Positions 14,092-63,131 of a DNA stretch of 64,000 nucleotides are shown one piece after another. Under the pieces are notes generated by a model. It had not been told where the DNA came from. It worked only from the letters and a program-made list of their open reading frames with translations, and did no database searches. Source of the DNA: Leucoraja erinacea (Eukaryota). The translations under genes were made by a program, and so were the position numbers. Within the stretch, counting starts at the first letter, position 1; every line of letters begins with the position of its first letter. The stretch covers positions 5,022,001 through 5,086,000 of the forward strand of contig NC_073408.1 in the NCBI RefSeq assembly GCF_028641065.1. The letters run 5' to 3'.

Positions 14092-14720
14092 CTAGACCAA
14101 GTGCAGACCCGTTGGGTCTGTTCCCCCAGGGTGCGGTTGTGTGGGGGAGTCGGCATGCAGCGTCACACACACTAACTATCCCTTCCCCCCCGCACTAATT
14201 ACCCCCCTTGATATTATATTAATATTATTAATTTACTCNNNNNNNNNNNNNNNNNNNNNNNNNNNNNNNNNNNNNNNNNNNNNNNNNNNNNNNNNNNNNN
14301 NNNNNNNNNNNNNNNNNNNNNNNNNNNNNNNNNNNNNNNNNNNNNNNNNNNNNNNNNNNNNNNNNNNNNNNNNNNNNNNNNNNNNNNNNNNNNNNNNTTA
14401 GAACCAAAAAAGACACATTCTGCAAGCATTGTAGAACCAAGAGACACTTTTTGCAAACATTTTAGAACCATTAGACACTTTTTGCTAACATCACTTCCTG
14501 GTTTTATAGTCGGGGACAGCAGGGAGAATGGGGAATTTTGTAAAAACATTAATATCTCTTGTCATTTTTCATCGACGGGAAAAATCCTCAGCACGCGGAG
14601 GGGGGGGGGCTCCGAGCAAGGTGGCCAAAAATGACGGCCGTAGATGGCGGGGTTCTCGTGGAAATCGCAGCACAGATGGCCAAAACCGGTCAAGAACAGA
14701 CTTTTAGTAATATAGATAGA
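14092..14720 (-). mobile_element. non-autonomous Helitron spanning the assembly gap
   Basis: minus strand A|TCTAT...CAGACCC-AAC-GGGTCTG hairpin...CTAG|T: TC and CTAG termini, subterminal hairpin, AT target. Confidence 0.75.
14239..14397. other. assembly gap (159 N)
   Basis: run of n. Confidence 1.
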
Positions 14721-19952: not shown

Positions 19953-20271
19953 TGATGGGCACTAGAGAGATGATTAAGGCATTTTGTGCAACTCTCCCTG
20001 TGATAAAACACAAAGAACTGTAGTAACTCAGCGGGTCAAACAGCATCTCTGGAATAGATGACGTGTCGAGACCCTCCTTCTATCAGTGCGTGTGATAAAC
20101 CCGGGCCGGGCAGTAGGTCACTGGGTGCCGAGGCTGTAGGGAGCCCTGGTGGGCGGCTAGGCCCTGAAGCCTCGGCCTTGGCTGCAGTCCCGGCCCCGGA
20201 GACTTCATCCAGCCGGCGTTGCCGTGTCTGGCTGCCCAGCACAGGGCCGCCCCGTCCGGCGGGCCTGCCCA

Positions 20272-21512
20272 GCGCCCCCTCACCCCCCCAGAGCGCTCCG
20301 TCTCCCCCCCCGTCACCCCCCACACGGCGCTCCCTCTCCCCACACCCTCACCCCTGCACCGGCGCTCCCTCACCCTCCCCACACCCCCCCACCGGCGCTC
20401 CCCTCCTCCTCACCCTCTCCCCACCCCCCACACGGCGCTCCCCCTCTCCCTCTCCCTCTCCCTCCTCCCCCCACACGGCGCTCCCCTCACCCCCCACACG
20501 GCGCTCCCTCCCTCCCTCACCCCCACACGGCGCTCCCTCACCCCCCACACGGCGCTCCCCTCTCCCTCACCCCCCCACACGGCGCGCTCCCTCTCCCATG
20601 CTCACCCCCCACACGGCGCTCCCTCTCCCTCACCCCCCAGATGTCCGCGCCTCCCTCTCCCTCACCCCCCACACGGCGCTCCCTCACCCCCCACACGGCG
20701 CTCCCTCACCCTCTCCCTCACCCCCCCCCGGCGCGCTCCCTCTCCCTCTCTCCCTCACCCCCCACACGGGCGCTCCCTCTCCCTCACCCCCCCCCACACG
20801 GCGCTCCCTCACCCCCCACACGGCGCTCCCTCACCCTCTCCCTCACCCCCCACCACCGCTCCCTCACCCTCCCTCCCTCTCCCTCACACCCCGGCGCTCC
20901 ACACCCCCACACGGCGCTCCCTCTCCTCTCCCTCGCCCCCCACACGGCGCTCCCTCTCCCTCTCCCTCACCCCCCCCACACGGCGCTCCCTCACCCCCCA
21001 CACGGCGCTCCCTCTCCCTCTCCCTCACCCCCCCCACGGCGCTCCCTCTCCCTCACCCCCCACACGGCGCTCCCTCTCTCCCTCATCCCCCACACGGCGC
21101 TCCCTCACCCCCCCCACACGGCGCTCCCTCTCCCCCTCTCCCTCACCCCCCACACGGCGCTCCCTCTCCCTCACCCCCCACAAGGCGCTCCCTCACTCCC
21201 CACACCCCCCACACGGCGCTCCCTCACCCTCACACCTCACCCCCCACAGGCGCTCCCTCACTCCCACACACCCCCCACACGGCGCTCCCTCTCCCTCACC
21301 CCCCACAAGGCGTCCTCACTCCCCCACCCCCCCACACGGCGCTCCCTCACCCTCACCCTCACCCCCCACAAGGCGCTCCCTCATACCCCCCACACGGCGC
21401 TCCCTCTCCCTCACCCCCCCACACGGCGCTCCCTCACCCCCCCACACGGCGCTCCCTCTCACCCTCACCCTCTCCCCCCCACACCCCCCACACGGCGCTC
21501 CCTCTCCCTCAC
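20272..21512. repeat. C-rich (+)/G-rich (RPS25 sense) minisatellite, core CCCCACACGGCGCTCCCTC, variable ~19-35 bp units
   Basis: roughly 45 copies directly visible, abutting the RPS25 exon-1 donor. Confidence 0.97.
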
Positions 21513-21602: not shown

Positions 21603-21827
21603 CCCCGGCGAGAAACGACGCCCCCCACTGGCCGTTGCCGGGGCAACGGGTTTGCTCGCGGATTAATTCCGAATAAATGCAGAAAAATTATAAACCAAAC
21701 CATCTCGTGGACCCGGCTCACATCACACGTTTGACAGCCAGCTCACCGGATAGTAGAACGCTTTTGATTTTGCCATGCAGGCGGCCGTTCGGCCCATAGC
21801 GCCCATACGCTATGGGCCGAACGGTTT

Positions 21828-24675: not shown

Positions 24676-24858
24676 GTGAGGCCGGGCGGCGGAGCCTGGG
24701 CGGCGGCTCCTCAAACCAGGAAACGCCCCGGTCAGCCTGGGCCTAGCCTAACCTAGTCCTGAAATAGACACTAAACCATGGAGTAATCCAGCGGATCAGA
24801 CAGCACCTCCGGAGAGAAGGAATAGGTCTCGACCCAAAAAGTCAACTATTCCTTCCCT

Positions 24859-25125
24859 CCAGAGATGCTGTCTGACCCGCTGAGTTATTCCAGCTTTTTG
24901 TGTCTATCTTCTGTTTAAACCAGCATCTGCAGTTCCTTCCTACACAGACTATCTCTATTCATTTTGTCCAGAGATGCTGTCTGACCCGCTGAGTTACTCC
25001 AGCTTTTTGTGTCTATCTTCTGTTTAAACCAGCATCTGCAGTTCCTTCCTACACAGACTATCTCTATTCATTTTGTCCAGAGATGCTGTCTGACCCGCTG
25101 TGTTACTCCAGCACTTTGTGTGTAT
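24859..25125 (+). repeat. 109-bp tandem repeat (~2.4 copies) of the Penelope-derived repeat end
   Basis: AGAGATG at 24861, 24970 and 25079. Confidence 0.9.
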
Positions 25126-25213
25126 CATAGCCTAACCTAGACCAGTCCTAACCCCTTGGGTGGTTCAACTAATTTCATAATCTGGGAAGTATTGGAAGTT
25201 TAAAGTTGCTAGG

Positions 25214-34391: not shown

Positions 34392-35375
34392 TGTTGCCAT
34401 GGCGCCTGACCCTGTGCCATGGTGCTGGACCCCGTTACCATGGCGTTGTTTCCCCCCGTTGCCATGGTGACCTCCCCCATAGCCATGGCGCTGGACCTCA
34501 TCTCCCCGTTGCCATGGCGCTGGATCCCGTTGCCATGGCGCTGGATCCCGTTGCCATGGCGCTGAACCTCATCCCCCCCCGTTGCCATGAGCCTGGATCC
34601 CCGTTGCCATGGCGCTGAATCCCCGTTGCCATGGCGCTGGACCCCCGTTGCCATGGCGCTGGACCCCCGTTGCCATGGCGCTGGACCCCCGTTGCCATGG
34701 CGCTGGACCCCCGTTGCCATGGAGCTGGACCCCCGCTGCCATGGAGCTGGACCCCCGTTGCTGTGGCGCTGAACCTCATCTCCCCGTTGCCATGGTGCTG
34801 GACCCCCGTTGCCATGGAGCTGGACCCCCCGTTGCCATGGCGCTGGACCCCCGTTGCCATGGCGCTGGACCCCCGTTGCCATGGCGCTGGTCCCCCGTTG
34901 CCATGGCGCTGAATCCCCGTTGCCATGGCGCTGGACCCCAGTTGCCATGGCGCTGGACCCCCGTTGCCATGGCGCTGGACCCCCCTTGCCATGGAGCTGG
35001 ACCCCCCGTTGCCATGGAGCTGGACCCCCGTTGCCATGGAGCTGGACCCCCCGTTGCCATGGTGCTGGACCCCCGTTGCCATGGTGCTGGACCCCCGTTG
35101 CCATGGTGCTGGACCCCCGTTGCCATGACGCTGGACCCCCGTTGCCATGGTGCTGGACCGCTGTTGCCATGGAGCTGGACCCCCGTTGCCGTGTCGCTGA
35201 ACTTCATCTCCCCGTTGCCATGGAGCTGGACCCCCGTTGCCATGGAGCTGGACCCCCGTTGCCATGGTGCTGGACCCCCGTTGCCATGACGCTGGACCCC
35301 GTTGCCATGGAGCTGGACCCCCGTTGCCATGGTGCTGGACTCCCGTTGCCATGACGCTGGACCCCGTTGCCATGA
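34392..35375. repeat. 22-bp minisatellite (CCCCGTTGCCATGGCGCTGGAC)n, ~40-45 units
   Basis: directly visible; ends ~45 nt upstream of the JAM3-like ATG. Confidence 0.97.
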
Positions 35376-35430
35376 CACTGCGCGAGCGGAGTGCGCATGC
35401 CCAGTGACGGGCGGGTTGAAGATGGCGGGC
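35376..35430 (+). promoter_or_regulatory. JAM3-like CpG-rich promoter/5'UTR with NRF1-like and YY1-like motifs
   Basis: TGCGCATGCCC at ~35392-35402; AAGATGGCGG overlapping the ATG; CpG-rich to ~35680. Confidence 0.6.
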
Positions 35431-35473
35431 GGGGTGTCGCTGCTGCCGCCGCTCTGCATCGTGCTGGCCCACG
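35422..35473 (+). CDS. JAM3: JAM3-like exon 1, signal peptide (MAGGVSLLPPLCIVLAH-V)
   Basis: aagATGg in a CpG island, hydrophobic leader, strong g|gtaagt phase-1 donor, in frame with the exon at 61826. Confidence 0.8.
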
Positions 35474-38089
35474 GTAAGTGAGGGCAACTACAGGACCGGA
35501 CAGGACAGGACAGGGCCGGACCGGGCCGGGCCGGGCTTTCACGGTGACTGTGGCCACGGTCGGGGACGGGGACGGGGAAAGGGGAATTGCTCTGTATTTG
35601 GTGCTTCGCTCCGGAGCGCGGATCTTTGCGCCGTTACTTAGCCCCGCTGTAGTCCGAGCTGTCTTCCCCGCCTTCCCCTCGCTGAGAATTTGTGCAGCCA
35701 CAACTTATGTTAAATTTCACTCTAAACCTTGTACCCTTTACAATGCCCCCGAATAAGGGTCTCCACCCGAAACGTCACTCATTCCTTCTCTCCGGAGATG
35801 CTGCCTGTCCCGCTGAGTTAGTTACTCCAGTATTTTGTGACTGTCCCTATTACACAGTCTGCCCTCGCACTCCGGGCGGACTGCGTACAGGTTGTTGCAT
35901 TTTAAAGGGTGCAGAGTTTAAAGTATAACTTAACACAATTTATTGCAATCTTATTCCAGCGCAAGCAGCTTAACATAACTCGTTGCAAAGTTTGACACAA
36001 AAAGCTGGAGTAACTCAGTGGGACAGGAATGGATGAAGATTCAGGTCGAGACCCGTCACCCATTCCTTCTCCCCAGAGATGCTGCCTGTCCCGCTGAGTT
36101 ACTCCAGCATTTTGTGTCTATCTTCAGTTTAAATCAGCATCTGCAGTTCCTTCCTACATATTTCGTTGCAAAGTTATTCTTGTTCAAGCAGTAAGGGTAA
36201 ATCTACTTAACAAATGTTGTAGGAACTCGTTGTCAAACCAGTTGATGTGATGACATTGAGTGATTTACTCATAGTGTTGTGATGTTGAAGGGTGTCTGTC
36301 GTTCAGCTGCAGTTAAGTGTTGTGGATGCTGTCAAACTGCTGGTGAAATGTTGGAATAGGTACATTGGCACCCAGGTATGTAGTTGCCGTGCTTAGACGT
36401 AACATAATCATTTTTGGATGCATTTCTGGATGGAAACTGGCTGCTGCTGGCTGAGGGCCAGTTGTCGTTGAAGCAAATTTAACCTCTGCATATTCTCAAT
36501 GAGGTTAGAGTCATAGAGTAATACTGTGTGGAAACAGGCCCATCGGCCCACCTTGCCCACCACGACCAACATGTCCCAGCTACGCTAGTCCCACCTGCCT
36601 GTGTTTGGCCCATATCCCTCCATCCTGTTCTATCCATGTACCTGTCTAACTGTTTCTTAAATGCTGGGATAGTCCTTACCTCAAGTACGAGAGTAGACTG
36701 TATAAGACTTTGAATCTGTGGAATTCTCTGCCCAGAAGGCAGTGGAGGCCAATTCACTGGATGTTTTCAAGAGAGAGATAGATATAGCTCTTTGGGCTAA
36801 TGGAATCAAGGGATATGGGCAGAAAGCAGGAGTAGGATACTGATTTTGGATGATCAGCCATAATCATATTGAATGGCGGTGCTGGCTCGAAGGGCCGCAT
36901 GGCCTACTCCTACACCTATTATCGATGTTTCTAAGATGCTGCATTTTGCAAACGGAAACTCATTGTGCAATGAGTTGCCTGTTTTCTGAGCTTGTAATCT
37001 TAAATGCCTATCGGCTGGGGAGCTTTCTTGATGCAAGGGTCATTTGTGCTGCCGAGAAGAAAACTGAAAATGTTTGAATTTCAATGAAGTAAATCTCAAT
37101 TTAAATGTAGTAATCTTAAATTACTTTTGTGGTTTTATGAATTGTCCGTATCAGTGGAACTGTCACAAACTTTGTCACAGTGCATTGTCACAATTTTTTT
37201 TTGCTGCTTTTTATTCAGATTAAAAAATATATAAACTTAAAGTGCGTGTGACGCCTACAATTAGGGATCTTAAAGTACCAAAAGGGGTGCCGCCCTGGCT
37301 TTGACTTTTAATTCCTCAATATTTATAGTTCACTTATCTTTCCTTGCAAAACACCCTTTCATATGTTTCCTGTTTTATGTCTCCTCTGTACTACTATTTC
37401 TTTTAACTATACTGTTTATACATAGAAATCTGCTGTTCAATTTCAGTTTGATCTCTGATACCATTTGCTCGAGAGTCAGATAAAGCTCTGATTTGAAATG
37501 TGCGCCATAATATGTCCATATATGACCGAGATTTCCTAATACTGCGAGTAGAATTTCAGTGTAAACAGTTCTCATGTGTGGGGATACTCAGCAGGTCAAG
37601 CAGCATGTGCAGAGAAAAAGCTAACCTGAAATGTTCATTCTGACATTACAAATTATCCTTCTGTATTATAATTTCATCTTATTATTCTTATTATCTGAGA
37701 TTTCAATTGTGAACAGTGACTTTATCTACTTGATCAAAGACTGCTGTCTCTGTCGTGGACATTGGATTTTTTTCTCTGTAACGATGCTAAAATGATGAAA
37801 AACTACTGTATTTTCTAAAGTCTGGTGTTTTTCCATTTGCCTGTTGTATTTGTGGATTGCAGTAATGTATGGTATTATCTGATTTAATTGGATTGCATGC
37901 TTTTCACAGTATCTCAGTATATCTGACAATAATAAACCAATGCCAATATATTCATAGATGCTACAAAAGTGATTAACAGATGTGAATGACTTGGCTAGGA
38001 TTGATCATAAGCATTCTGCATCATGGAATCTCACAACATCCACACTGATCAGCAGACACCATTTGGTATTTTTTCAGCCTTTTATGCCT

Positions 38090-61825: not shown

Positions 61826-61891
61826 TTTATCAAGTATGGGCGCAAAGGGTAGCAACTGACACTCCAAATCTCGTGGTGAATGAGTTTGACA
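61826..61891 (+). CDS. JAM3: JAM3-like exon 2 (VYQVWAQRVATDTPNLVVNEFD-S)
   Basis: 66 nt, phase 1/1, ttcttag|...a|gtaagt; VVxEF-S ending as in JAM3 exon 2. Confidence 0.85.
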
Positions 61892-63026: not shown

Positions 63027-63131
63027 GTGTTGTGCTATCCTGCATTATCCACTCCAGTCATAAGCATCGTATTGAATGGAAGAAATTAAATGCTGTCACA
63101 GATTTTGTATATTTTGATAAACAAATTCAAG
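63027..63131 (+). CDS. JAM3: JAM3-like exon 3, Ig V domain start (SVVLSCIIHSSHKHRIEWKKLNAVTDFVYFDKQIQ-G); gene continues past the window
   Basis: LSCII, RIEWKK (JAM-C-type RIE dimer motif), FDxxIQG; tttcag|...g|gtgtg. Confidence 0.88.

Follow-up and report, generated by a model that had tools for sequence, protein, structure and literature searches.

A 22-bp promoter minisatellite built on a probable RFX element upstream of JAM3 in the skate Leucoraja erinacea

When a promoter carries more than forty tandem copies of a segment resembling a transcription factor site, the copies may have been kept for what they bind, or they may have accumulated by the ordinary mutation of repeats. This question is raised by a minisatellite directly upstream of JAM3 in Leucoraja erinacea, found in a window of 64,000 nucleotides of contig NC_073408.1, the whole stretch of DNA that was analysed. 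The sequence-only reading of the window took the array for a promoter RFX X-box amplified into a homotypic binding array, with copy number as a possible rheostat of expression. The reading that we favour, with a probability of about 0.55, is a mutation-driven promoter minisatellite that grew from a real and ancient RFX element and has little length-dependent effect on JAM3.

The locus, the array and its RFX sites

By Pfam matches the gene order in the window is CENATAC/CCDC84 (+), RPS25 (−), TRAPPC4 (+) and JAM3 (+), spanning 11939–63131; human JAM3 is presumably not a neighbour of TRAPPC4. The gene downstream of the array, previously called JAM3-like, is JAM3. Translations of coding exon 1 (35422–35473, + strand, encoding the signal peptide and ending in the donor G|GTAAGT), exon 2 (61826–61891, +) and exon 3 (63027–63131, +, the start of the Ig V domain) agree in every residue with the L. 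erinacea JAM3 record P0121, and exon 1 is the N-terminus of both P0121 and P0001. Identity as JAM2 or JAM-A is rejected, since the exons equal P0121 exactly and all four protein matches of exon 3 are named JAM-C or JAM3B. Intron 1 (35474–61825) is 26 kb long. The L. erinacea isoform X2 (P0122) has another N-terminus spliced onto exon 2, which suggests a putative alternative first exon and hence a JAM3 promoter that would be independent of the array. Elsewhere in the window, a 109-bp SINE-like segment is repeated 2.5 times in tandem right after TRAPPC4 exon 1 (24858–25126), and an assembly gap of 159 N is present at about 14240–14400.

The array (34393–35380, +) consists of 44 units, mostly 21–23 bp, with the consensus GTTGCCATGG(C/A/T)GCTGGACCCCC. 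The units are arranged head to tail with a period of 22 and a TRF score of up to 1149, and their length falls within the 10–60 bp that define a minisatellite structurally. Among the 44 units are 24 distinct sequences. Degenerate units occupy the 5′ end and A, T and D types the gene-proximal side; C-type units make up 16 of the first 26 and none of the last 18. Like types adjoin each other, with 17 identical neighbours vs 9.6 expected (p = 0.005). Polarised turnover of variants is the usual behaviour of the minisatellite class, and the local runs of unit types are ordinary turnover of this kind. A longer variant unit had been proposed to recur as a sign of higher-order amplification. It does recur, as units 5, 8, 17 and 36 of 29–31 bp (34479–35213, +), but the amplification is not borne out: the spacings of 3, 9 and 19 units are aperiodic, the exact 18-mer quoted for the variant is found once, and mixed strings of three to five unit types recur at most twice, so that a higher-order repeat is rejected. 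A coding role of the array is rejected as well, the long open frames on both strands following from a unit poor in stop codons and each 22-bp unit shifting the frame.

At its 3′ side the array ends about 45 nt ahead of the JAM3 ATG, as had been stated; the last GTTGCCATG ends at 35374 and the ATG is at 35422. The NRF1-like site reported beside this end is likewise present, as TGCGCATGCCCA at 35392–35403, which by consensus matching has one mismatch to TGCGCATGCGCA, the NRF1 consensus (PMC3820735 and PMC13017510). Just 5′ of it lies the terminal unit GTTGCCATGACACTG (35366–35380, +), whose left half-site is perfect and whose right half is degenerate; this unit occupies the position of the conserved vertebrate X-box.

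RFX sites were scored by consensus matching, not with a PWM in FIMO. For the dimer the consensus is GTNRCC N0-3 RGYAAC, and for the monomer it is GTTRCY or GTTGCCA (PMC10530576); the X-box is also given as RYYNYY N1-3 RRNRAC (PMC4168999). The motif GTTGCCATG, described earlier as almost universal, is exact in 37 of the 44 units; it occurs once more elsewhere in the 64 kb, where 0.73 occurrences are expected by chance, and none of 100 shuffles reached 38. The monomer site GTTRCY fits 40 units and GTTGCCA fits 37, so the units conform to the RFX monomer consensus. The full dimer consensus is found in unit 4 only (1/44), and the array as a whole is not one of dimer sites. Against GYTRYY-NN-RRHRAC, 37 units have two mismatches, five have three or four, and one has a single mismatch; in most units the two or three mismatches fall in the right half of the X-box. 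What had been counted as some forty or more X-box-like motifs thus holds as a tandem series of RFX monomer half-sites (40/44) and not as a series of full X-boxes. Near the gene these half-sites are in direct-repeat orientation.

The exception, unit 4, contains the near-palindrome GTTGCCATGGTGAC exactly at 34458–34471, where it had been reported. It is the sole full palindromic X-box of the array, has no mismatch to GTNRCC N0-3 RGYAAC and reads GTCACCATGGCAAC on the − strand. In translation it reads V-A-M-V-T, as the primate element does. Judged by its letters, unit 4 may be the ancestral site, moved 950 bp in the upstream direction, or a T-type unit in which the loss of 4 nt has restored a full site.

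Origin of the unit and persistence of the array

To look for the element in orthologues, we used over-extended JAM3 protein annotations, which translate the proximal promoter, as a proxy for promoter DNA. From 211 proteins, 32 with N-terminal extensions of at least 25 aa were retained, two of them added by hand. The X-box-encoding pattern, V-[AV]-M-[VAE]-[TP] or a start at M-[VAE]-T, was chosen post hoc and views one frame in three through degenerate codons; with these limits it occurs in 14 of the 32 extensions. Taking one representative per clade, the X-box pattern was found at the orthologous position through these translations in 5 of 14, vs 0.14 in shuffles, and none of 20,000 shuffles reached five; as evidence this is indirect, though strong. 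Four primates read VAMVT and a shrew VAMVP, five ruminant records and a killifish start at MVT, and three cypriniforms read VVMVT, VVMET or MET. The pattern is absent from the other nine clade representatives, which include zebrafish, gecko, falcon, frogs and bamboo shark, and from three cartilaginous-fish extensions (P0005, P0006 and P0209, two of them only 11–12 aa). In the orthologues the ATG of the element lies 81–138 nt ahead of the start codon; in the skate the distance is 50 nt for the terminal unit and 958 nt for unit 4. Near the start codon, many of the extensions also show NRF1-like translations (AHA, AQA, CAC or MRA), and the order of X-box, NRF1-like site and start codon is seen in mammals and teleosts too. 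As a side result, JAM3 appears to retain an X-box and NRF1-type promoter across jawed vertebrates. Ten JAM3 models (P0067, P0072, P0104, P0105, P0133, P0134, P0138, P0144, P0146 and P0157) start at or upstream of the ATGs of the promoter X-box or NRF1 motif and are probably over-extended annotations.

Binding of this promoter by an RFX factor is recorded in mouse. In Table S1 of a mouse testis RFX2 study, Jam3 is marked 'yes' for ChIP-seq (promoter), with the differential-expression columns empty; the study counts 977 peaks in promoters and 138 targets with changed expression (PMC4498915). The mouse Jam3 promoter is therefore RFX2-bound, but by this table its expression in testis does not depend on RFX2. 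Dync2li1, a known target, has the same pattern of a peak with no expression change, and redundancy among RFX factors may for this reason mask an effect on Jam3. JAM-C is required for spermatid differentiation in mice (PMC5472279). This role makes an RFX link biologically sensible and proves nothing for skates.

The claim that one promoter X-box was amplified thus survives in its seed, which very probably comes from a conserved promoter RFX element (5/14 clades and the mouse ChIP peak), and not in its product, since the units are half-sites. By comparison of these sequences, the amplified segment very likely derives from the conserved element. Amplification probably started from an element whose right half had already degenerated, given the resemblance of the terminal unit to a D-type unit through ATGAC-A/G-CTG.

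Three contig sets from other organisms (B, C and D) and one RNA run, 4 of 24 listed runs, were aligned to 35340–35760. Organisms B, C and D each have one contig that spans the promoter, exon 1 and intron and differs from the window by 10, 10 and 16 letters, respectively, plus indels. In C and D the long contig starts at 35347, and the B contig aligns from 35342 and continues for 39 letters in array units. Organism C has an extra 36-letter contig equal to 35342–35376 exactly, and D has a depth of 82–105 over the last units vs 27 for single-copy sequence. Because the contigs break at 35347 while the 30-mer 35347–35376 is unique in the window, this 30-mer is implied to be repeated in C and D, with a 3′ unit order different from that of the window. 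The different order shows turnover between organisms, not polymorphism. At least three other skate-like organisms therefore have such a repeat; its length of 44 units is that of this assembly alone. In run X1, which is possibly the assembly's own source, 0.65 of sampled words were found vs 0.58 from non-interior (flank or junction) words (p = 0.03), a weak sign in favour of that length. A metagenome scan for the batoid exon-1 motif gave no match. Inside intron 1, a short pentamer-type repeat at 35490–35537 differs in sequence and length among B, C and D.

Comparison of the three organisms also bears on constraint. In 35347–35415, which holds the last two units and the NRF1 site, 0 of 69 sites are variable vs 14 of 239 intronic sites (Fisher p = 0.026, or 0.09 if extended to 35421), with boundaries set after viewing the data, one of B's ten differences unlisted and able to fall there, and the simple repeat at 35490–35537 left out of the intron count. 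The long contigs of X10 and X14 have no substitution at 35347–35415, and none is listed for X3. The per-position table covers 40 of the 44 units, leaving out units 1, 3 and 4 for linker indels and the terminal unit; 1 of 8 variants in the half-site and 5 of 9 in the linker have spread through the array (p = 0.09), and linker positions 13–15 are as invariant as the half-site. These hints of constraint are weak. What constraint is seen concerns the proximal end only, as would be expected if the ancestral element, and not the array, were being kept.

Expansion and function of the array

The array shares the neighbourhood with a second one. A GC-rich minisatellite with a period of about 22 bp and 37 GGTGAG cores lies on the − strand at the start of RPS25 intron 1 (20271–21512). 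It is 1.2 kb long, has grown from the exon 1/intron 1 junction, lies 13 kb from the JAM3 array and contains no RFX site; two arrays are thus found at the three promoter CpG islands of the window. The short chromosomes of sharks and other elasmobranchs are described as richer in simple tandem repeats (bioRxiv 10.1101/2022.10.17.512540), and the skate JAM3 records are on contigs of 27–30 Mb. The same-period RPS25 array without an RFX site, an RPS25 X-box that stayed single and the repeat richness of short chromosomes together mean that local expansion requires no selection for RFX sites, and the RPS25 array weakens arguments from the mere existence of the JAM3 array. Adjacent JAM3 units can pair as hairpins through the self-complementary core GCCATGGC (z = −2.24; 4 of 200 shuffles equally stable), and the array holds 38 C-runs of four or more. 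Both the hairpins and the C runs are plausible aids to slippage.

A mutation-driven origin would have proceeded as follows. The jawed-vertebrate JAM3 proximal promoter, as the orthologues indirectly indicate, would have carried an RFX X-box and, 3′ of it and close to the start codon, an NRF1-type site. The right half of the element would then have decayed in the lineage of the skate, and a 22-bp segment bearing the element would have been duplicated, after which slippage or unequal exchange, aided by GCCATGGC hairpins and G/C runs, may have enlarged the array. What followed can in part be seen: three or more other skate-like organisms still have the repeat, and it continues to turn over. RFX probably occupies the few units proximal to the NRF1 site as monomer sites, in continuation of the ancestral role. 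The other 35–40 units would be too distant from the start site and too weak, and length variation would change JAM3 little.

Alternatively, the array may act as a homotypic cluster, in which some 40 monomer sites about two helical turns apart raise RFX occupancy, offset the decayed right half and tie the level of JAM3 to allele length. We regard this as possible but doubtful. The ancestral site is RFX-bound in mouse (PMC4498915), single RFX monomer sites are recognised, may be functional and can drive expression (PMC10530576), and in the TRIB3 promoter output rises with each copy from 1 to 5 (PMC7425993). The lesser spread of half-site than of linker variants and the keeping of the array in four organisms point the same way. 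Nevertheless, a full X-box is present in only one of 44 units, mouse Jam3 expression is independent of RFX2 in the table cited above, and the same period recurs in the RPS25 array without an RFX site. Moreover, functional motifs in human promoters cluster at −120 to +10 bp (PMC13017510), a range that would take in about four units, supposing a start site just past the NRF1-like site, and most units lie outside it. It is improbable that the single dimeric X-box shared by fish and mammals was replaced in skates by a phased array of about 40 monomers that keeps JAM3 RFX-responsive by avidity and serves as a length-variable dial of JAM-C dosage. If true, the locus would offer a natural way to ask whether a single palindrome can be replaced in function by many weak half-sites, and the dial would act on a protein needed for spermatid polarity in mouse.

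The array could also lower output, being methylated and closed or bound by an RFX1-type repressor, with internal transcripts that bear strong upstream ATGs and give no JAM-C, so that longer or more open arrays would yield less. RFX1/MDBP binds sites with methyl-cytosine in place of thymine (PMC3185043), and the second CpG of the unit is TG in nine and CA in one of the 44 units, as from deamination; however, 10 units have AG there, a change that deamination does not produce, 38 of 44 keep the first CpG, and CpG o/e across the array is 0.62–0.64. Methylation could matter, but the CpG pattern is mixed. The Kozak-context ATGs noted in the units are there, with 36 GCCATGG among 42 ATGs, and one more in the NRF1-like site brings the upstream ATGs to 43. 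Only the ATG of unit 42 (35329–35331, +) is in the JAM3 frame without a stop, adding 31 residues, yet it starts none of 10 proteins of the skate JAM-C cluster, most of which are 5′-truncated. RNA over 35340–35760 amounts to a single unspliced read at about 35374–35518 (about 5/100 of one bulk run), which says nothing on where transcription starts. The uORFs of the sequence-only reading would require transcripts begun upstream, and these data lend them no support. On this balance, dampening of JAM3 by the array is a decidedly poor prospect.

The likeness to RFX sites might be fortuitous, amplification having struck a GC-rich 22-mer in which GTTGCCATGG was present by chance, with no RFX action at the skate promoter; this is highly improbable. 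The poor right halves in 43 of 44 units and the lack of the X-box pattern in the extensions of P0005, P0006 and P0209, two of them very short, would agree with it, but the like order of X-box, NRF1-like site and start codon in mammals and teleosts and the RFX2 peak at mouse Jam3 (PMC4498915, Table S1) do not. An assembly artefact or an assembler-inflated length, to which the single source of the 44-unit count and C-run differences attributable to homopolymer errors might point, is unlikely to the point of being negligible, because the contigs of B, C and D stop at or just inside the array edge, with units visible in that of B, the units are diverse, and run X1 yields more of the sampled words than flanks and junctions supply, X1 being possibly the assembly's source.

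Related systems and neighbouring features

GC-rich minisatellites of CpG islands have units of 10–60 bp, a degenerate edge, local runs of variants and purine/pyrimidine strand asymmetry. The skate array shares these traits and differs in that its unit contains a conserved regulatory site. Promoter tandem repeats that multiply a transcription factor site are a well-known class, of which the skate array is an unusually long example with putative function. A literature search, with most subscription journals outside its reach, returned no paper on an RFX-site minisatellite or on this locus.

The 33-bp VNTR of the human TRIB3 promoter is similar in that a conserved proximal-promoter factor site, single in relatives, was multiplied in one lineage (PMC7425993). 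TRIB3 has 1–5 intact C/EBP-ATF copies with a demonstrated dose effect, whereas the skate has 44 copies, of which 43 lack a full X-box, any effect of their number on expression being putative; unlike the one-lineage TRIB3 VNTR, the skate repeat is common to several species. With X-box promoters of RFX2/3 targets, mouse Jam3 and its RFX2 peak included, the skate promoter shares a GTTGCCA monomer near the start site, but those targets carry one or two palindromic X-boxes near the TSS whereas the sole full X-box of the skate array is 950 bp upstream (PMC10530576, PMC4168999 and PMC4498915). With a conserved site, an RFX2-bound orthologue and a copy number ten times that of TRIB3, the locus offers a natural experiment on whether RFX half-sites add or saturate.

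Two further observations concern RPS25. A perfect palindromic X-box, GTTGCCGGGGCAAC, is present as a single copy at 21634–21647, between the divergent RPS25 and TRAPPC4 and about 85–95 nt 5′ of the pyrimidine-rich RPS25 start; the mouse orthologues of both genes are absent from the RFX2 testis table (PMC4498915). The GGTGAG cores of the RPS25 array resemble splice donors and lie directly 3′ of an exon whose sole codon is the ATG, and cryptic donor use within that array is conceivable.
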